A stretch of 39,994 nucleotides of DNA. Source: a virus (taxonomy: Duplodnaviria > Heunggongvirae > Uroviricota > Caudoviricetes). Below, one piece after another: positions 1,615 through 10,924 of this stretch. The position numbers were made by a program, and so were the translations under genes. The stretch lies in IMG/VR virus record IMGVR_UViG_3300023371_000094. One strand, given 5' to 3'. Position 1 is the stretch's first letter; each line of letters starts with the position of its first letter. The notes beneath the pieces were generated by a model. It worked only from the letters and a program-made list of their open reading frames with translations. It had not been told where the DNA came from and did not search any database.

Positions 1615-3009
1615 TTATCTATTGCTTATGATGTCCTTGATGATCTGCATCATATCAACACCGAAGCGCTGGTTATACGCCAGAATAATTGCATCGATGT
1701 TTTCCTTTTCTACATTTCTGTAGTATGCAATTTGTCCACCAAGAACCTGCACTTCCTCAACGTCCCACACACGATGATGCGTGTAATCGTTTAAGAAGGA
1801 ATACACCGCCGCCTTGAAAGCCTTTCGCTTTTCGTGACCGATGGTGATTTCGTTATCCTTGTTAAGCATCAGTCCAAGGTTCCAGTTGCGACCGGCGGAA
1901 GAACCATATCTGGTTTTCTCGGTGTTAAGAGAGAAGGGAACATTGAAACGACGGAGAATGTCAAGGATTTCATTCTGTACGGAACCTTCCTTATCGACTT
2001 CCCACGTGAACGACAGGTCGCTCGAAATGAGGATGTCGTCTGCATACCTTGTATAGCAGAGATGAGGGCTATGCTCACGGCACATCTTAGCGATGGCGTG
2101 ATCGATAGGGATCATCATAATATTCGTGATCGTAGGGCTAAACGGAGTACCCTGCGGAAGAACGCCGTTCAGGAAACAGAGAGATAATGCCTTCGACAGA
2201 GCCTCGCGACCTCTTTCGCTCTTAACAATCTCGCTGTAAGGGAAAATGCTGCTAAGCTGACGAAGAACAAATTCGTGAGTAGTGGAACCAAAGAAGTTTG
2301 AAAAATCAAGCTTGAGGAACCAGCGCGAATTGTTTCTCTGGTGACGTTTAAGAGCATCTATCGTAGATCTGCCCTTGACATAAGCAAATGCAGAGGTGTG
2401 ATAGCTTCCGAACAGTTTGTTTTCGAAGGTGATTTTGAGGTCGGTGAGAACGCTCTTAAACTCAGCACGGGGTGCGTCTATGCGGCGGAACCCTGCTTTG
2501 ATGAAGGATTTGATTTTCTCTTCATTTACCTCAAATCCGAGAGGAGTTAGGTACTGAACACACTTAGCAAGAGATTCCTGCTCGATTCTGTTGTGTTCTG
2601 CGCAAGGGTGATTGGTAAGCAATCCCTTCAAGATAGCAAACACATCTGCATAAACGTCTTTGCCGCTGTATGAAATGCCAGAGTTAGCGTTGTGAGTCTT
2701 GAAAATCTCACGCACTACAACCGAGAAACCCTTGTTCTTTTTCATAAGATAAAAGGTTTCGTAAAGGTTTTCTTTGGGTACATCGAAATACTCACGGTGG
2801 CGGTTGTTGAACTTTTCAAGCATACCAACCATAGCCCCGATGTTGATTTTTTCAAGCAGACGGGGCGGGGTGTGGTCACGATATACCGTTCTTGTATCAC
2901 AGGTATCATCCATCATCCTTGCAAAGAACGACTCATTGATACCGTTTAAGATGTCGTCGAAAGAAATCTGGTACTCTTTCTGACGCACCGGTATAGTTAT
3001 GTATGGCAT
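1615..3009 (-). CDS. Retron-type reverse transcriptase with about 170-aa N-terminal extension
   Basis: AFAYVKGRSTIDALKRH (region X, NAxxH-like), FLKLDFSNFFGS, GVLPQGTPFSPTITN, YTRYADDILIS, NLGLMLN (at the VTG position). No group II intron maturase or endonuclease domain recognised. Confidence 0.9.
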   Translation of the reverse strand: MPYITIPVRQKEYQISFDDILNGINESFFARMMDDTCDTRTVYRDHTPPRLLEKINIGAMVGMLEKFNNRHREYFDVPKENLYETFYLMKKNKGFSVVVREIFKTHNANSGISYSGKDVYADVFAILKGLLTNHPCAEHNRIEQESLAKCVQYLTPLGFEVNEEKIKSFIKAGFRRIDAPRAEFKSVLTDLKITFENKLFGSYHTSAFAYVKGRSTIDALKRHQRNNSRWFLKLDFSNFFGSTTHEFVLRQLSSIFPYSEIVKSERGREALSKALSLCFLNGVLPQGTPFSPTITNIMMIPIDHAIAKMCREHSPHLCYTRYADDILISSDLSFTWEVDKEGSVQNEILDILRRFNVPFSLNTEKTRYGSSAGRNWNLGLMLNKDNEITIGHEKRKAFKAAVYSFLNDYTHHRVWDVEEVQVLGGQIAYYRNVEKENIDAIILAYNQRFGVDMMQIIKDIISNR

Positions 3010-3018
3010 AATGTGGAT

Positions 3019-3326
3019 CTCCTATAAACATTTATTTATTGTCATCTCATGAAGACCGCGGAACCTGCGATGGTAATCCTGAAGATGGAGTTTGTCAAGA
3101 TGTTTTGAACAATTATTTATTAACAATGTGTTAATAAACTGGCTCATAAGGGGGTGTTCGGTGGTGGTTTCTCGTGTGCACGGGAGTTACCAGCAGTACC
3201 ACGCTCGCTTGAGCTGGTTGTATCCCGGATTGCATCCCTTCTGAGCGTCGTCGCTCGCTCTGACATCTTGGCACTTTGAATGTAATCCAAAGCCTTATCG
3301 TGAAGATAAGAATTTCTTTATCGGAG
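3019..3326 (-). ncRNA. Retron-type msr-msd ncRNA cassette R3 (308 nt), canonical position upstream of RT
   Basis: a2 CTCCGATAAA (3317-3326) pairs 9/10 with a1 TTTATAGGAG (3019-3028). G at 3316, spacer AAATT, hairpin CTTATC-TTCAC-GATAAG, hairpin GCTTTGGA-TTACA-TTCAAAGT (3273-3293). Long-range stem TGCCAAGATGT/ACATCTTGACA; 10-bp hairpin TTTATTAACA/TGTTAATAAA. Confidence 0.85.
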
Positions 3327-3332
3327 CGTTAC

Positions 3333-4007
3333 TTAAAACGCATCAATATCAAAATTGAATGCGTCTATCGTAACAATTTTCTTGAGTTCCTTCTTTCTGA
3401 TGAAGTTCATAAAGTTAGAAACTCCGTAAGAACAGATGATTCTTACTGTGGGTGCTACTCCCATTTCAACGTTGCACGCCGTTACAGGAGTCGAAGCTTT
3501 AGCTTCTTCGTGAGTGAAGTCCATACTGCGGATGAGATTGTCCACCATACGGGAATCTTTCCAGTCGGCGGCATAATGCTGAGCATCCTCAAGGCGAGTT
3601 CTGAAATCAAACATTGCTTTGATGGACTGATTGGGTTTGTTCTTGATAGCGATTTCACGTCTGAGGTCGATGTTGTCAACGCACAGGAAAACATAGCCAC
3701 TCAAGCGTGTGTTCTGTGTCCACCCTTCGGGGTAAACAGTGATGTCGTTCGCGGCTTCGGGGTTAATTGCACACAGCATATCCTTTACCGCATCAACCTT
3801 GAGTCGCTTGATGTCTGCATTGGTAAACATCTGGTTCGCCAGATTGTGAGCAGAAACGACGTCAAAGTCGTAGAGGGAAATCTTTGTGATACCGAGGCGA
3901 ACAAGAAGCTCTGCCACGGTAGAGCCGACGGAGCCACAGCCGATGATGTGACATCGGCTGGTTACGTCAATAGGATTGAAGTAGTCCTGTGATTTTACGA
4001 GATTCAT
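3333..4007 (-). CDS. ThiF/E1-like ubiquitin-activating enzyme
   Basis: IIGCGSVGS nucleotide-binding loop, DFDVVSAHNLANQ, KVDA, LCVDN, candidate catalytic Cys in TACNV. The ATG at 4007 overlaps the upstream stop (ATGA), so it is preferred to the track start at 4016. Confidence 0.9.
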   Translation of the reverse strand: MNLVKSQDYFNPIDVTSRCHIIGCGSVGSTVAELLVRLGITKISLYDFDVVSAHNLANQMFTNADIKRLKVDAVKDMLCAINPEAANDITVYPEGWTQNTRLSGYVFLCVDNIDLRREIAIKNKPNQSIKAMFDFRTRLEDAQHYAADWKDSRMVDNLIRSMDFTHEEAKASTPVTACNVEMGVAPTVRIICSYGVSNFMNFIRKKELKKIVTIDAFNFDIDAF

Positions 4008-5008
4008 ACTGAGCACCTCTCTCTGTAGAGTTTGTAGTAGTCGTCCTCATCATCGTCGTCATAGAGGGAAATTTGGCGTCCATAATCATCGTCGTCTTCG
4101 ACGTCGGGACGTTTGCTCTGCAAGGATGAGGTAGTCTTCGGGGTTGTTGCCGCTGCCGGAGCGCTTCCGTTGTATGTGCCGTGATAAGGATAGGTTGATA
4201 CGGGGGCAGTAACTCTACGCTCTACAACTACGCCTTCAGCTTCAGAGATAAGTTCCGAAAGGAAGAAGTCATCTTCTACCTCGACATCAGAGGAAATCGT
4301 GAAGCTAAGCTCACCCTTACTATTGATCGAAGTAAGGTTCTTTTGAGTGAGCCTGTCTACATATTCCTCAATGGCATCGTGGAATGCGTCCTTGATGCGT
4401 CTCTTGATGTCTTCAATCTCGATTACCGAGAATTCGATTTCATTGGTAGCATATAAAGCGTTATTCGACAAGTCGTAGATTTCGCCACTGATATCGCCTT
4501 TTTTGTTTGTGATGATGAAGATGTAGAAGTAATCATCTCCTGCACCCGGTGTAGCGAAGTTGCCCAAGATGTTCTTCCTGTATGTCATATCAACTCCTGA
4601 CGGGCTTACAGCCATATTTACGTGGCTATGACCGTGGAAACGACAGGCGTTGAAGGTTTCGTCATCGAGGGAGTCAAGCCATTCTTCGTAGCATCTCTGA
4701 TCGGATACTACCGTTGCGCTGGAAACCTCGTGAGGGAAAATGAGGATGTCCTTAATGAGGAATTCTGCCTCACCTTTGCGCTCAACAAGCCCGTGCCACT
4801 CGACTTCAGTGCCGTATTTGTGAACTAAAGCGTACATTTTCACCCACGCACTGGCTGCAAAAACAAGTTTTGCTTTGCGATTGTCTTTAGGAGCAGGGAG
4901 TGTAACCTTGACATCCTCGGAATGAAACTTCGTATTGCGGAGTTCCTGCGTTGCTTTCTCAAGAGCTGCGCGAATGTCCTCATCGGACAAATAAATTCTC
5001 TTAGCCAT
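4004..5008 (-). CDS. JAB/JAMM (MPN) metallo-isopeptidase
   Basis: EVEWHG (catalytic Glu) and FHGHSHVNMAVSPSGVD match the HxH-x7-S-x2-D JAMM motif. Acidic low-complexity C-terminus. Start set at ATG 5008 behind GAAGGAG. Confidence 0.85.
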   Translation of the reverse strand: MAKRIYLSDEDIRAALEKATQELRNTKFHSEDVKVTLPAPKDNRKAKLVFAASAWVKMYALVHKYGTEVEWHGLVERKGEAEFLIKDILIFPHEVSSATVVSDQRCYEEWLDSLDDETFNACRFHGHSHVNMAVSPSGVDMTYRKNILGNFATPGAGDDYFYIFIITNKKGDISGEIYDLSNNALYATNEIEFSVIEIEDIKRRIKDAFHDAIEEYVDRLTQKNLTSINSKGELSFTISSDVEVEDDFFLSELISEAEGVVVERRVTAPVSTYPYHGTYNGSAPAAATTPKTTSSLQSKRPDVEDDDDYGRQISLYDDDDEDDYYKLYRERCSV

Positions 5009-6398
5009 TGTTATCTCCTTCATTGTTCTCCGCCGTTCTGATGTAGTTAAGGAACTCTCTGGGAGTCATTTCGGTGCCGTTATCTGCGATAATGCAACGG
5101 CAAGACTCAAAGCGACCTGCGACATCTCTCAACATCTTGGATACTACGGTCGAGTCTCCAAAGTTGACGTTCTTGGCAGCCGCGATTGTCTGCTCGATTG
5201 CCAAATCCCAGTCGCCATCATTCATATATCTGGCGATTGCATCTCGGTTTCCACCGAGACAAGCGTGATGATAGATGTGAGGATGAGGAAGGTGTGTTTC
5301 ATCATAGCCACCACTTCTCATACCGGATTGGGCATTGATGCTTGAAAGATTGTTCAACGTAAACATTGCCTCAACTCTGAACTTTCCCTTATTGAGAGCG
5401 AATACAGCGTTAAACACCTCTCTGACTTCTGCACCACAAGTGCTCGTATTGAAGTAAGAATTGGGGTTATCTCTTACTCTTACGAAAGCATCCTCGTCAT
5501 AATACTCAATCGTTTCGGTGATTGTGTAATACAACGTCTTTCCGTTCGAGCTGTTCTGAACTCTGTAAACTCCCAACTGCTTGTGGGTTTTGAAGAAATT
5601 AAACAGAGCTTCGTTGGTATCTGCGGGTTGGTTAAGCATCGCGTTGAGATTAAAGAGCAGGGCATCAAGCTCCATATACAAAGTTGAGATAGCCTGTTCT
5701 TGTGCGGCAATATTGTTTCTCGCCTTGTCGCACTTGCTTTCGAGGGTACGAATCTGTGCTTCTCTGAAGTGATTGTTCCATCCGATGAGAGTTCTTGCCA
5801 TCATCATAGATTTGAAATCATACTTCTGAGCCAGCTCGTTCACCACCTTGGTGAACTTTGGGGAATCTTTATCGTGAGCCGCCTTGAAAAGTGCGAGCTC
5901 ACCTTCCGTGAGTCTGTAGTTTTCCGTATAGATCCACGGAAGAATTCTGAAAAGGGAAGAGCAGAACTCATCAATCCATCTTTCAGTAACACGCTTAACA
6001 AAAAGAATAACCTTTTGTGCATCCCTGTTAAGGAATACTGCTGTGGCAGATGCCTTGCTCAAGAAAGGCGCAACAGGATACGGAGGCGTATCTAATGCAA
6101 TCCAGCCCTCTTTGTCAATGTAAGGCAACTCTGCTCCGTTTCTCGATTCTACAATGAGAATATTGTGAGACGACTCCATCATCGAAGCCGCGAAATCATT
6201 GCCGCGAGCACCGGGGCTAAAGGTAGAGGACTGAACCTTAATCAGCTTTACCTTTTCGATGTTCTCGGGGCAATGAACCACGGCAACATAACGAAGCGTT
6301 GCTTCGAGGACGGTGCTACCGAAAGGGAATGAATGACTCTCCACTCCGAAGAATGCATTTGCGTCTGAATTGGTTAATAGAGTATCGATGTAATCCAT
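5001..6398 (-). CDS. Prokaryotic E2-like (UBC-fold) protein with central coiled coil
   Basis: C-terminal LPHPHIYHHACLGG resembles the E2 HPN-x-CL active site. Heptad-rich segment around aa 205-255. Located between Ubl and JAB. Confidence 0.6.
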   Translation of the reverse strand: MDYIDTLLTNSDANAFFGVESHSFPFGSTVLEATLRYVAVVHCPENIEKVKLIKVQSSTFSPGARGNDFAASMMESSHNILIVESRNGAELPYIDKEGWIALDTPPYPVAPFLSKASATAVFLNRDAQKVILFVKRVTERWIDEFCSSLFRILPWIYTENYRLTEGELALFKAAHDKDSPKFTKVVNELAQKYDFKSMMMARTLIGWNNHFREAQIRTLESKCDKARNNIAAQEQAISTLYMELDALLFNLNAMLNQPADTNEALFNFFKTHKQLGVYRVQNSSNGKTLYYTITETIEYYDEDAFVRVRDNPNSYFNTSTCGAEVREVFNAVFALNKGKFRVEAMFTLNNLSSINAQSGMRSGGYDETHLPHPHIYHHACLGGNRDAIARYMNDGDWDLAIEQTIAAAKNVNFGDSTVVSKMLRDVAGRFESCRCIIADNGTEMTPREFLNYIRTAENNEGDNNG

Positions 6399-6427
6399 AT
6401 CCCGTTGCTCCTTATGTATGCTTTATT

Positions 6428-6670
6428 TTACTTGCGAGCGCCGTCAGCCTTGATGACGCTGTTGAGGTTTACGGTTGCGCCGTCGGCAACACCGAGTGCC
6501 TCGAAGGTGGAATTGAGATCGGTCGCGGTCAGAATCATACCGTTAAGGTTAACGGATGCGCCAGCTACGCTAACGCCGAGGTCGCCGAATACTCTTGCGG
6601 GAGTGGAATCCACGTCTGCGGTAACTTCCTTGCCACGGATGGTGTTGGTCTTGATAACAACTTTAATCAT
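6428..6670 (-). CDS. Ubiquitin-like beta-grasp protein
   Basis: 80 aa with a beta-grasp-like pattern (MIKVVIK...SVNLNG...STFEALGVADGATVNL) ending KADG-ARK. First gene of the E2/JAB/E1 cluster. Confidence 0.75.
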   Translation of the reverse strand: MIKVVIKTNTIRGKEVTADVDSTPARVFGDLGVSVAGASVNLNGMILTATDLNSTFEALGVADGATVNLNSVIKADGARK

Positions 6671-6761
6671 AATAATTCTCCTTGTAATTCAATTTTTTCT
6701 GATTTGTTTGTTGTGGTGGAAGGGGCGCATTTCACGCCCCTTGGTGAACGGAAACCGTAAC

Positions 6762-7148
6762 TTAGGCTACGGTGATGCTGTCAACGAGCTCCTTGCGAGC
6801 AGTCTTAGCTGCAACAGCCGCGTCGTGAGCAACTCCCTCGACCTGCTCAAGGTATGCCTTGACAGGAGCAACGAGGTCAGCAACGAACTCCTTGGGGTTC
6901 GCGGTGCCGGTGGGGATCATACCTGTGATGGTTGCATAGCCTGCCTCATCGTGAGACTTACCGCCGAAGGTAACGCCGAAAGCGGTGATGCTGGGCTTAC
7001 CCTCTGCATACGAAACCGCAAACTTCTCGTTGCCGTCTGCGTCCTTAACCTTGAGGGCGTCGGGATTGCTCTTCTTGAGCGTCTTGATCTCGTCAACGGT
7101 GATCTTCGAGGTGATGGCGTAGGCATCTGCTGTGATTGTGATTTTCAT
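6762..7148 (-). CDS. Hypothetical protein upstream of the Ubl operon
   Basis: 128-aa ORF with RBS AAAGGAAGGAA; co-oriented with its neighbours. Confidence 0.7.
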   Translation of the reverse strand: MKITITADAYAITSKITVDEIKTLKKSNPDALKVKDADGNEKFAVSYAEGKPSITAFGVTFGGKSHDEAGYATITGMIPTGTANPKEFVADLVAPVKAYLEQVEGVAHDAAVAAKTARKELVDSITVA

Positions 7149-7217
7149 AGTGTGTTTCCTTCCTTTATGAAATGTATTTTTTTATCACTCTAATGAGTTG
7201 ATAACGAAGATTAGTGT

Positions 7218-7241
7218 CTAAATATGGGTTGTCATATTTAG
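7218..7241. promoter_or_regulatory. Inverted pair of CTAAATATG boxes (operator-like)
   Basis: CTAAATATG-ggttgt-CATATTTAG, intergenic. The same 9-mer occurs in several promoter spacers. Confidence 0.6.
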
Positions 7242-7249
7242 AAAAAATC

Positions 7250-7312
7250 GAGAGGCGTTTTAATCGTAAAAATTTGTTGGCTACGAAGAAAAAGGTTTGC
7301 TGTTCGCCTCTC
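7250..7312 (-). ncRNA. Stem-closed ACAGCAA RNA module (a), just 3' of DUF2828
   Basis: GAGAGGCG-a-ACAGCAA...CGCCTCTC, 8-bp closing stem. Confidence 0.55.
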
Positions 7313-7328
7313 TGTTGAAGTATGTATA

Positions 7329-8846
7329 TTATTTCAACGCATCTTCAACAGGCTGATATCTGGGTGTGTTGAGTGTCTCAAGCAGGCACTCGAACGGATC
7401 TGTCTTGCCACTCATAACCATCTTACAGATGTTTACGGAGAAACCGCTTACAAGGGCAACTCCCATATTGTTCTCACGAACGGGGATGGTATTCGTTCTG
7501 GAGTTTACGTTCCAGAATACGAGGCGAGGGAGCTTATATCCATATCCTCTGTACTTGGCTTCGATGGTTTTGAAGAGATTTGCACCAATGCGACCGGTAG
7601 TTGCACAGTCAAACTCCATATCGGAGATGATAAGGATGTTCGCAGGAATATCCTCTTGGCGCATATTGTTACGAATCGCAGTGTTCAAAATGAGGTCGAA
7701 TACCGCCTCGATATTGGTGTTAGAAATCTCGCTGTGCCCAAGAGCAATAGAAATCTTGTCGCGCAAACTCTGCCCACGACTGAAATCAACGAGCTGAGGA
7801 CGGGAGGAGAAGGTGATGTACTTGTTCTTGAACTCGCCAGAAGAACGCTCTGCAAAGTAGATTGCCAAAGAATTTGCAACTTCAAGAGCAGTCACTCCCG
7901 AGCTACCTACTCTCGACATCATCGAGCCAGAGCCGTCGGCAACAACGATCGTATTACCGCATCCCTGAACAAGGTCGGGGAGGTTCTTCCAAAGAGCTTC
8001 GATTGTTGCGTCATAACTCTTTGGGGTTCTACCATAACCGCCACTGCAGTACTGGTGTACGATGTCGTAAGGGAAGAGTGTAGAAGCATTGATGCGTGCT
8101 TCACCCTTTTCAAGGCTTGCAAGGAATGCTCTTCTTCGTTCCTCGTCGTTTCTGAGGAATGCGCCGTTGTAAATAAGATTTGCACGAGAGGGAACTGCTT
8201 CGTAATCGATTTCGCCCCACATCTTAGCAGACATCTTAACCTCGACGACGTCCGTATATCTACGGAGTGCGCTGAGTGTTCTACGGTATTCGCTTTCCTT
8301 CATCTCAAGAGCATTGCGTAAGATCTTTGCATATCTCTTAGTAGTAGCGGAGGAAGCATTTGCGGATGGCATCCATTTACCGAGAAGGGAAATAGGCTTT
8401 CTGTTGCGACTGTTCGCAACATCTTCGGTGAGTTGCTGACTTACAAACTCAACAATATAGGGACGAAGCTCGTTGTCGTCGAGGAGCGACCAAAGGTCAT
8501 CATATCTTCCGTATTCCGGAATAAGTCCGACAACCTTACGAGCCGTCTCGGGCTCATACTTGGCTATGTATTTCATTGCGGTTCTGAAGAGCCTACGCTC
8601 GCCAAGACCGCCGCGCACATCTCTGGCGAAGAAGAGCCACTTCATAGCCAGAACTTTGTTTTCGAGAAATGCTGCCTGAAAACGACGGACGATTTCACCT
8701 TCGTTTGCGGAACGGAGAGATGCGACCGCAAAGTTGATGTCAAGCAGAGCTTTGCCTGTCGTGCGGTATCCTACCGCGCCGTTCTCGGTGACGGACTCGT
8801 TGAAATTTTCGAGCATTTCATTCTTCATTGCATCCATAAAACTCAT
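7329..8846 (-). CDS. DUF2828 family protein (helical N-terminus plus VWA; possibly a distant TROVE/Ro60 relative)
   Basis: TENGA, LFFARDVRGGLGER, KWMPS, VVADGSGSM (MIDAS), IISDMEFD, VFWNV. Confidence 0.85.
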   Translation of the reverse strand: MSFMDAMKNEMLENFNESVTENGAVGYRTTGKALLDINFAVASLRSANEGEIVRRFQAAFLENKVLAMKWLFFARDVRGGLGERRLFRTAMKYIAKYEPETARKVVGLIPEYGRYDDLWSLLDDNELRPYIVEFVSQQLTEDVANSRNRKPISLLGKWMPSANASSATTKRYAKILRNALEMKESEYRRTLSALRRYTDVVEVKMSAKMWGEIDYEAVPSRANLIYNGAFLRNDEERRRAFLASLEKGEARINASTLFPYDIVHQYCSGGYGRTPKSYDATIEALWKNLPDLVQGCGNTIVVADGSGSMMSRVGSSGVTALEVANSLAIYFAERSSGEFKNKYITFSSRPQLVDFSRGQSLRDKISIALGHSEISNTNIEAVFDLILNTAIRNNMRQEDIPANILIISDMEFDCATTGRIGANLFKTIEAKYRGYGYKLPRLVFWNVNSRTNTIPVRENNMGVALVSGFSVNICKMVMSGKTDPFECLLETLNTPRYQPVEDALK

Positions 8847-8893
8847 TGTTTTAACCCTCTTTCTTTTTTATTTTTGTTTGAATGGATGTCCCC

Positions 8894-8952
8894 AAGACGC
8901 AGAAGTATTCAGATTAACCGTCTGAGCTTTTGAAATTTGCTGTAAGCGTCTT
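8894..8952 (-). ncRNA. ACAGCAA module (b) in the DUF2828 5' leader
   Basis: AAGACGC-tt-ACAGCAA...TCAGA-CGGTTAA-TCTGA...GCGTCTT. Confidence 0.55.
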
Positions 8953-8968
8953 AGAGGGTTGTAAGAGC

Positions 8969-9031
8969 AAGGCACATTGCAAGATAAAAATTCCCTAAAT
9001 TTTCCTTTGTTAATATTGCTGTGAGTGCCTT
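8969..9031 (-). ncRNA. ACAGCAA module (c)
   Basis: AAGGCAC-tc-ACAGCAA...AAAAT-TTAGGGA-ATTTT...GTGCCTT. Confidence 0.55.
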
Positions 9032-9033
9032 AA

Positions 9034-9163
9034 TGGTTGGGAAGGTTGGATTCGAACCAACGTAACATAATGTGGCGGATTTTCAGTCCGTACATTGCAG
9101 TTGTGGTCTTAACCAAGACCAACATAATGGTTCCGCTGTCTTTAGCCACTTGACTACTTCCCA
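9034..9163 (-). tRNA. tRNA-like gene, GAA (Phe) anticodon, long variable arm, 45-nt insertion in the anticodon stem
   Basis: Acceptor TGGGAAG/CTTCCCA-A-CCA, T arm GTTGG-TTCGAAT-CCAAC. Anticodon arm GCGGA-CTGAAAA-TCCGC is restored by removing 9090-9134. Confidence 0.65.
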
Positions 9164-9169
9164 ATAAAG

Positions 9170-9254
9170 TGGTGGGCGAGGCAGGACTCGAACCTGCGAA
9201 GCCGAACGGCAACGGGTTTACAGCCCGCCGGAATTGCCGCTATCCGACTCGCCC
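9170..9254 (-). tRNA. tRNA-Tyr(GTA)
   Basis: GGGCGAG/CTCGCCC-A-CCA, GCGGG-CTGTAAA-CCCGT, long variable arm, GCAGG-TTCGAGT-CCTGC. Confidence 0.92.
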
Positions 9255-9263
9255 AAAGCGATG

Positions 9264-9381
9264 CGAGAGTGGCAGGACTCGAACCTGCGACCACGGAGTT
9301 AACAGCTCAAAATAACCTTGCAGTATAAGGCTTTTACAAACCTCGTTAATTACGTGCTCTATCCAACTGAGCTACACTCTC
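9264..9381 (-). tRNA. tRNA-Asn(GTT) with 44-nt insertion between nt 28 and 29
   Basis: GAGAGTG/CACTCTC-G73, GCTC-AGTTGGATA-GAGC, CG[9309-9352]GAG-CTGTTAA-CTCCG, canonical T arm. No encoded CCA. Confidence 0.7.
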
Positions 9382-9388
9382 GATACGG

Positions 9389-9504
9389 TAGGGGTGATAG
9401 GATTTGAACCTATGACCACGAGCGAATGCAGTGCTAAAGAAAATTGCAGTAGCAGTCGATAACTCGACTAACAATACGTGCTCTAACCGCTGAGCTACAC
9501 CCCT
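9389..9504 (-). tRNA. tRNA-like gene with 41-nt insertion at 28/29 and a 9-nt anticodon loop (GCA central)
   Basis: AGGGGTG/CACCCCT-A, GCTC-AGCGGTTA-GAGC, CG[9436-9476]AGC-ACTGCATTC-GCTCG, ATAGG-TTCAAAT-CCTAT. Confidence 0.6.
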
Positions 9505-10477: not shown

Positions 10478-10783
10478 TACCACAATCCATGTATAAAACC
10501 TGAAGTGAGCTCATCCGACGAAGAGTCCCGAGGATGTCGAAATAAGGTTAATTATTTCGAGTTCAACAGGAAAATTAAGTTGAAAAGATGTGGATAATTA
10601 CCAATTTATAGGTATTTAGTGGAGGATAAGTCGCCGACTTTGGCTGGGAGATGGCGCATTGCGACGTTTAACGGGCGATGCAGCCATCCGGATCGTAGAT
10701 CCGATGAGTAATCCTTCTCACATCTTGTCACTTTGAGTGTAACCCAAAGCCCTTCCCAAAGGGAAGACATTTCGATTGTAGTA
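10478..10783 (-). ncRNA. Remote retron-type msr-msd ncRNA cassette R4 (306 nt)
   Basis: a2 TACTACAATC (10774-10783) / a1 GATTGTGGTA (10478-10487), 10 bp with one G-U. G at 10773, spacer AAATG, hairpin TCTTCCC-TTT-GGGAAGG, hairpin GCTTTGGG-TTACA-CTCAAAGT (10730-10750) identical to R1. Confidence 0.82.
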
Positions 10784-10924
10784 TAAGCTCATCAGCCGAC
10801 CAAAGGTCACGGGATTGGTGAGGTATAAGCCATACTGATGAGCAGGAGAGCAAGTGTCTAAATATGTTTTAGATTGGGCAGAAAAAATAATCCCGATGGC
10901 TTGTCATTTGGATTTGACAAGTAT

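Follow-up and report, generated by a model that had tools for sequence, protein, structure and literature searches.

A putative ubiquitin-like conjugation cassette carried by gut Clostridia phages and linked to a multi-copy retron

A DNA stretch of 39,994 nt (hereafter the window), which is part of a 76-kb IMG/VR virus record (IMGVR_UViG_3300023371_000094) with an estimated completeness of ~52%, was analysed for a gene cassette resembling those that conjugate ubiquitin-like proteins (Ubl) in bacteria. Five co-oriented, closely packed genes were located on the minus strand at positions 3333-7148: p128 (128 aa, 6762-7148), the first gene of the cassette, which is conserved and matches no known family; a Ubl candidate (80 aa, 6428-6670), ending in ...VIKADGA followed by RK; an E2-like protein (465 aa, 5001-6398), the C-terminal part of which models as a UBC/RWD-type domain; a JAB/JAMM-type metalloprotease recognised by its motif (339 aa, 4004-5023, probable start ATG at 5008); and a minimal E1 of the ThiF/MoeB type assigned by Pfam ThiF (224-227 aa, 3333-4016, probable start ATG at 4007). 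On the same strand, the 323-nt gap between the E1 stop and the next start holds a copy of a retron non-coding RNA (ncRNA), named R3 (3010-3332), which is followed by the downstream partner of the cassette, a retron-type reverse transcriptase (RT; 464 aa, 1615-3009) with an RVT_1 domain, and, downstream of the RT, by a gene for RNase H (660-1097). An initial annotation of the window had described a complete operon of four co-oriented genes, Ubl-E2-JAB-E1; all four were found where they had been placed, and the conserved p128 has to be counted as a fifth member of the cassette.

The overlaps annotated among the E2, JAB and E1 genes were confirmed. An ATGA at 4007-4004 contains both the stop of JAB and the probable start of E1, and JAB in turn probably begins at 5008, behind an AAGGAG site and within the last 8 nt of the 465-aa gene; AAGGAG ribosome-binding sites also precede the Ubl ATG and the 465-aa gene. 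No terminator-like site was detected in a consensus scan of the minus strand from p128 to the RT, and the ncRNA model starts ~5 nt after the E1 stop, in agreement with the earlier description of R3 as lying close behind E1 with no terminator between them. A perfect TTGACA-17-TATAAT promoter was obtained at 10953-10925 in a consensus scan whose results overall were not above chance. The 91-nt gap between p128 and Ubl contains a GC-rich hairpin (GGGGCG...CGCCCC) lacking a T tract (6719-6738, minus strand), which could be a site of RNA processing or attenuation.

The E1 protein was assigned to Pfam ThiF (PF00899) with an E-value of 2.6e-24 and 86.2 bits (cut-off 28.1), and a single ThiF domain, covering residues 19-223, makes up its whole architecture. 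Homologues are mostly of the same small size (222-231 aa, with a few up to 285), and across 78 distinct sequences the residues G26xG28xxG31, D50, D52, K73, D114, R139 and C181 are invariant; Cys181 would sit in the crossover loop. The best matches in the PDB were MoeB, UBA5 and Cap2, the only PADLOC matches were the E1-E2 models of CBASS (cyclic-oligonucleotide-based antiphage signalling systems; 2.2e-16), and the protein remained below every NCBIfam cut-off.

For the 339-aa protein, the zinc-binding motif of the JAB/JAMM proteases, HxHx7SxxD (E73, H132-S133-H134, S142 and D145), was invariant in 84 homologues. No Pfam match was obtained even at an E-value of 10, nor any PADLOC, NCBIfam or PDB sequence match, and in an hhalign comparison with the bona fide Prok-JAB family (PF14464) only the motif was aligned, in register, with an overall probability of just 7%. 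Protein language-model features gave a value of 0.95 to a viral cluster labelled 'JAB domain-containing', 23% of whose members carry PF14464. As judged from its conserved motif, the protein is probably a divergent JAB/JAMM protease. The C-terminal tail of the JAB homologues (window positions 4004-4150) is of low complexity, strongly acidic and interspersed with aromatic residues (DDDD..DD.YY..LY), a character that is conserved across the family.

The 465-aa protein, which had been annotated as an E2 fused to a large N-terminal and coiled-coil region, was submitted to structure prediction as a check, and this architecture was seen in the AlphaFold2 (AF2) models. The full-length model (predicted local distance difference test, pLDDT, 89.6) begins with an alpha/beta domain, which is followed by a coiled coil (about residues 205-260) and then by the UBC/RWD-type domain (263-465) at the C-terminus. 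Because VIA-align searches with the full-length model were swamped by coiled-coil matches, the C-terminal domain was folded alone (pLDDT 86.9, predicted template modelling score 0.82). The order of its elements (helix, two strands, helical insert, two strands, HPH loop, Cys380, helices) fits the UBC pattern, and about 44 of the best 50 chains returned by VIA-align have UBC, RWD or UEV folds by our own count; they include Ubc9 (Z 6.4, 92 residues, root-mean-square deviation 3.3), the E2 domain of Cap2 (Z 6.2) and a bacterial Bil-type E2 (8tyz_C, Z 5.2). In the model, the C-terminal 200 aa appear to take a UBC/RWD (E2-type) fold. The motif LPHPH...C lies within this domain, with HPH at 372-374 and the cysteine at 380, and H374 and C380 are the only residues that are invariant across 83 E2-like homologues, some of which are only ~19% identical to the window protein (tblastn). 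The active sites of the E1, the JAB protein and the E2-like protein, described at the outset as apparently intact, are in this way borne out by conservation, and as a whole the operon appears to be complete.

The E2-like family is large (94 word-indexed homologues, and 2359 clusters at 50% identity), and it matched nothing in Pfam, PADLOC or NCBIfam. When its profile was compared with 1.84 billion representative sequences, the best 150 matches were all relatives of the same architecture, and no link to a named E2 family appeared. Sequence and profile searches of the PDB with the E2-like, JAB and Ubl proteins gave nothing significant.

The C-terminal motif K-A-D-[N/G/S]-[A/G] of the Ubl candidate is conserved in an alignment of 30 homologues, with Ala as the final residue of the motif in most of them. 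Among 61 distinct C-terminal contexts, 34 end at ...KADNA with nothing after it, and between one and four variable residues follow in the others; in the window the sequence is ...KADGA followed by RK. The conserved position is therefore Ala78, and trimming would most likely expose this residue rather than Gly77, so that the mature end is probably Ala78 as read from the homologues. The initial annotation, in which the JAB protein was proposed to trim the Ubl to an exposed Gly, has to be corrected on this point. Four relatives (L043, L089, L090 and L096) encode an in-frame fusion in which the Ubl is joined, immediately behind ...KADNA, to the N-terminus of p128. Such fusions are reminiscent of ubiquitin precursor fusions, and they tie p128 to the Ubl pathway, which makes it a candidate partner or target of the Ubl. 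A conserved end followed by zero to four extra residues, or by p128, is the pattern expected of a modifier processed by a protease, with a small C-terminal residue exposed by the processing.

The p128 gene adjoins the cassette in 77/107 related loci (26-62% identity); it matched nothing in Pfam, PADLOC, PHROG or NCBIfam, and an Atlas search gave no usable match. The Ubl likewise had no match in Pfam, PADLOC or NCBIfam, and its only PDB matches, to ubiquilin UBL domains and TtuB, were not significant. The beta-grasp fold of the Ubl is presumed; a comparison with ThiS/MoaD failed. The protein families of the cassette are without description in any curated library.

The RT was recognised by Pfam RVT_1 (5.3e-20) and by the PADLOC retron RT models (up to 150 bits; RT_II-A, 1.7e-44), and scored 167 bits against the NCBIfam model retron_St85_RT, the cut-off of which is 235. 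Alignment of the gap between E1 and RT from 11 loci revealed the elements of a retron ncRNA in R3, namely an a1/a2 inverted repeat, two msr hairpins and a variable msd. The a1 sequence is CTAATAAA(G) and the a2 sequence is TTTATTAG, the latter overlapping the ribosome-binding site of the RT. Compensatory changes were observed in 12/13 hairpin base pairs, and 93.6% of cells were paired vs 30-60% when the partners were slid. At the gene level, the locus thus combines an RT of the retron clade with an upstream ncRNA bearing a1/a2 and msr hairpins. A promoter-like sequence, TTGACA-17-TACCAT (10/12 matches), lies in the predicted msd of R3 at 3070-3098 (minus strand), ~60 nt before the RT start.

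With a covariance model trained on the aligned E1-RT gap sequences, four msr-like copies were located on the minus strand of the window. The copy within R3 (3238-3328, 80 bits) belongs to the training set; two others lie between the RT and RNase H, at 1329-1418 and at 1531-1614 (25.3 bits, outside the training set), and the fourth, also outside the training set, lies at 10695-10785 (44.8 bits), ~3.5 kb upstream of the Ubl operon. With copies on both sides, the operon is flanked by retron ncRNAs. These four paralogous copies accompany a single RT, and a multi-copy pattern was also found in many relatives. The 1329-1418 copy forms part of a unit with its own a1/a2 pair, ATTACAATC / GATTGTAAT (about 1418-1105), which ends at the ribosome-binding site of RNase H.

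The linkage of operon and RT, proposed earlier as a check on their relationship, was measured across genomes. A search based on the RT alignment gave 107 loci (38-63% identity), 100 of which could be assessed for an upstream E1; the E1 was present in 98/100, and E1, JAB and the E2-like gene were all present in 92/100. The reciprocal E1 search gave 79 loci, and the RT was found downstream on the same strand in every locus with enough sequence (n = 78/78), the distance from E1 to its best RT match being 0.3-2.4 kb; many contigs were common to both searches. The association survives rearrangement: in L011 and L012 the E1 and the RT are separated by RNase H, and in L125 E1 follows the RT.

The presence of terminase, portal, integrase and tRNA genes in the window identifies it as phage DNA, and the placing of the conjugation machinery on a phage, as annotated, agrees with its IMG/VR record. 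The same phage, with 99-100% protein identity, was found in a 106-kb contig of a Clostridia metagenome-assembled genome from sheep colon. The carriers are mostly uncultured phages of gut Clostridia, of about 105-139 kb: the 30 carrier records range from 59 to 139 kb, those at least 90% complete from 104 to 139 kb, and terminal repeats were detected in five and a provirus flag in three. The terminase is 48-55% identical to that of the window in 27/30 records; two carriers have a terminase that is 26% identical, and one record, 50% complete, had no terminase match. No match to the region was found among GenBank phages by megablast, and a protein search of deposited phages with E1 gave one match, the unannotated faecal-metagenome record MT835544.1 (52% identity).

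Divergence across the carriers is alike for the terminase (48-55% identity), E1 (52-62%) and RT (41-63%). As the conservation of the cassette is similar in degree to that of the terminase, its inheritance appears to be mostly vertical, as a core-like block of one lineage, and the co-occurrence counts do not represent independent events. This conservation fits a fixed function of the lineage better than a freely swapping defence gene. The interpretation offered at the outset is partly supported, and the data agree equally well with each of the roles it named, namely counter-defence, superinfection exclusion or the effector of the retron. The retention of both parts in the two carriers with the 26% identical terminase is modest evidence for joint transfer.

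On balance, we favour, with somewhat better than even confidence, the interpretation that the phage locus encodes a Bil-like cassette for Ubl conjugation, made up of new protein families and locked to a multi-copy retron. In the proposed pathway, the JAB protein would trim the Ubl to ...KADGA and, in the relatives with a fusion, would release it from a Ubl-p128 precursor. The minimal E1, presumably a homodimer like MoeB/UBA5, would activate the C-terminal Ala by adenylation, perhaps carrying the Ubl on Cys181, from which it would pass to Cys380 of the E2-like domain, with His374 assisting, before it is finally attached to a target. The cassette appears to be co-transcribed with the retron (the RT, the four ncRNA copies and RNase H), both being inherited as one block in the lineage of gut Clostridia phages. 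Most likely they cooperate in conflicts of the phage with its host or with other phages.

The bacterial systems provide the closest comparison. In Bil the genes are arranged as Ubl, E2, JAB, E1 (PMC11601603), and BilD comprises an inactive and an active adenylation domain plus a helical CYS domain (10.1101/2023.09.26.559546). The cassette has the order of the type I and II BilABCD operons (Ubl, E2, JAB/JAMM, E1), and shares with them an E2 with a conserved Cys and a nearby His, the possibility of extra residues beyond the conserved C-terminal position of the Ubl, and the lack of an E3; Bil also acts in the conflict between phage and bacterium. In contrast to Bil, the cassette is encoded by the phage and not by the host, its E1 is a single adenylation domain of ~225 aa instead of the multi-domain BilD, its E2-type domain occupies the C-terminal third of a longer protein (~435-565 aa) that also contains a coiled coil and an additional domain, the His precedes the Cys whereas it follows it in BilB, the Ubl ends in Ala rather than Gly, and a conserved p128 and a locked retron are added. 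The Ubl, E2-like and JAB proteins matched no Bil or other defence family in PADLOC, Pfam or NCBIfam (the inclusion of Bil models in PADLOC v2 was unconfirmed). With the gene order of Bil but a different E1, a fused E2-like protein and unmatched families, the cassette would work like Bil without being a member of the Bil family. Type II CBASS is also partly similar, as the E1 matches the Cap2 models, the E2 of Cap2 is among the structural neighbours and Cap2/Cap3 includes a JAB partner; the cassette differs in having no CD-NTase, in having E1 and E2 as separate proteins, and in having a dedicated small Ubl in place of the enzyme's own C-terminus.

Retrons, composed of an RT, an msr-msd ncRNA and an effector, have been classified into 13 types by Mestre et al. 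2020 (PMC7736814). The RT of the window is of retron type, nearest to St85/type II-A, the a1/a2 and msr hairpins lie directly upstream of it, the accessory genes are closely linked, and there is precedent for carriage by temperate phages. Unlike the described retrons, this predicted one has a five-gene Ubl cassette as its accessory genes, several paralogous ncRNA copies per RT, an RNase H encoded by the phage itself, and an RT that falls under the NCBIfam cut-off. The words ThiF, ubiquitin and JAB are absent from the classification paper (PMC7736814), and the pairing of a retron with a Ubl cassette was not found in the family libraries or in the literature searched, where general reviews were at most retrieved.

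Several observations weigh against the interpretation as a conjugation cassette coupled to a retron. The VIA-align Z scores of the E2-like domain (4.2-6.9) do not exceed the background stated for the tool, so that the case for an E2 rests on the enrichment of one fold class among the neighbours and on no single match, and Foldseek searches of the PDB with the full-length model and with the C-terminal domain found nothing. Catalytic activity is lacking in the RWD and UEV members of the UBC fold. The Ubl ends in Asn-Ala or Gly-Ala rather than Gly-Gly, its hhalign comparison with ThiS/MoaD gave a probability of 2.9%, and the closest relatives of the E1 are the sulfur-transfer enzymes MoeB and ThiF. 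Two related RTs have no cassette: in L124 the RT adjoins a CCA-adding enzyme, a kinase-like gene, MazG and an integrase, and in L033 a Ubl-like open reading frame (ORF) is kept and a cysteine-desulfurase-type gene directly follows the RT. The linkage may also derive largely from shared ancestry in one lineage. A complex prediction of E1, Ubl and the E2-like C-terminal domain scored 0.02 (mark 0.32), a result that carries no weight either way on binding.

The point on shared ancestry can be extended to a distinct explanation, which we consider unlikely, that the Ubl system works independently of the retron and that the two are neighbours only through the conserved early-gene arm of one vertically inherited lineage. 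The similar divergence of terminase, E1 and RT would be expected in this case, upstream genes such as p338 are likewise syntenic in distant members, E1 and RT can be separated by other genes or ncRNA copies (0.3-2.4 kb), and L033 and L124 show that related RTs can exist in the absence of the cassette. However, the E1-RT pairing outlasts local rearrangements and two changes of terminase type, while the Ro60-like gene and others move; the ncRNA starts a few bases past the E1 stop with no terminator-like site in between; and among the 78 E1 loci there is none without an RT.

A different chemistry, to which we assign a low probability, would be a sulfur-carrier pathway in which the E1 adenylates the small protein, a thiocarboxylate is formed with sulfur from the cysteine desulfurase of the phage, and the sulfur is passed on to RNA, DNA or a cofactor; the JAB protein would then merely mature the carrier, and the protein with Cys380 would act as a relay for sulfur or as an acceptor enzyme. 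In CysO/Mec+ and QbsE/QbsD a JAB protein matures a sulfur carrier. The cassette resembles the sulfur-carrier systems (ThiS/ThiF, MoaD/MoeB, TtuB/TtuC, CysO/Mec+) in its minimal ThiF/MoeB-type E1 with a conserved Cys, in the small carrier and in a JAMM protease that could mature it. The E1 indeed matches MoeB and ThiF best and has the same minimal size, and a class-V aminotransferase of the cysteine desulfurase type is encoded in 22/31 carrier records (13/16 of those at least 90% complete), which together allow this reading; the desulfurase-type gene next to the RT and the Ubl-like ORF in L033, and a lineage rich in genes for tRNA and RNA repair (Thg1-like, CCA-adding enzyme, RlaP, Ro60-like, tRNAs), are also in its favour. 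On the other hand, the known carriers end in Gly-Gly, the Ubl gave no ThiS/MoaD profile match, and a UBC-type domain with an invariant His/Cys pair is kept, which sulfur-carrier pathways do not use. No recognised thiolase accompanies the cassette: a tRNA thiolation partner of the TtuA or ThiI type was rejected after a search of 21 carrier genomes, in which neither the TtuA/TilS-type PP-loop enzymes nor ThiI were found. The desulfurase is absent from 3/16 near-complete genomes and could serve unrelated needs in iron-sulfur cluster or tRNA metabolism. It is situated ~20 kb away from the cassette, and its neighbours in the cluster are a Thg1-like enzyme, a phosphoesterase, RlaP, a CCA-adding enzyme and a CI-like repressor.

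At the opposite extreme from independence, the Ubl cascade and the retron could form one machine, with the E2-like protein using RT-msDNA (multicopy single-stranded DNA) as its scaffold, sensor or substrate, or with msDNA gating conjugation, an arrangement that we regard as rather improbable. Were the former true, the Ubl would be attached to the RT, to p128 or even to msDNA, and were the latter true, a new class of retron would have protein tagging and not a toxin as its output; in either case the machine would be used by a virus and not by a cell. A PRTRC cassette (TIGR03734-03742) was rejected, as E1 scored 31.7 bits against PRTRC_ThiF (cut-off 144.75) and the other cassette proteins matched no PRTRC model.

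Prokaryotic Ubl conjugation has so far been known as a bacterial anti-phage defence (Bil, CBASS Cap2), and retrons as bacterial defences with toxins as accessory proteins; here a Ubl cassette and a retron are both borne by viruses and joined in one conserved block. This block spans a large lineage of gut phages, of which the deposited phage genomes contain a match in a single unannotated faecal-metagenome record. If the cassette tags proteins, as we favour, bacterial viruses would be using Ubl modification for their own ends, in a tractable system of five proteins, and if it works with the retron, this would constitute a new kind of retron output. The probable maturation at Ala78, the four Ubl-p128 fusions and the presence of a cysteine desulfurase in most carriers are points that we have not seen noted before.

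Some further observations were made on the carrier phages. The gene of the terminase large subunit is split into two or three matching pieces in several relatives and contains a single in-frame TAG or TAA in others (such pieces or stops were recorded in G004, G017, G018, G014 and G002, and also in G010, G011, G023, G013, G016 and G006), possible causes being introns, inteins, insertions of homing endonucleases or recoding of stop codons. On the minus strand of the window, at 9264-9381 and 9389-9504, Rfam gave two tRNA matches (116-118 nt) that ARAGORN did not call; they adjoin a tRNA-Tyr gene and a Ro60-like DUF2828/VWA protein (7329-8846). Locus L281 (G011:C1:29000-41500) encodes, at 3692-9498, a Thg1-like tRNA-His guanylyltransferase, a metallophosphoesterase, an aminotransferase of the cysteine-desulfurase type, an RlaP nucleotidyltransferase and a CCA-adding enzyme, adjoined by a CI/LexA-like repressor, and similar genes are present in 22/31 carrier phage records. 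The toolkit for RNA repair and modification of these relatives is unusually rich for a phage.

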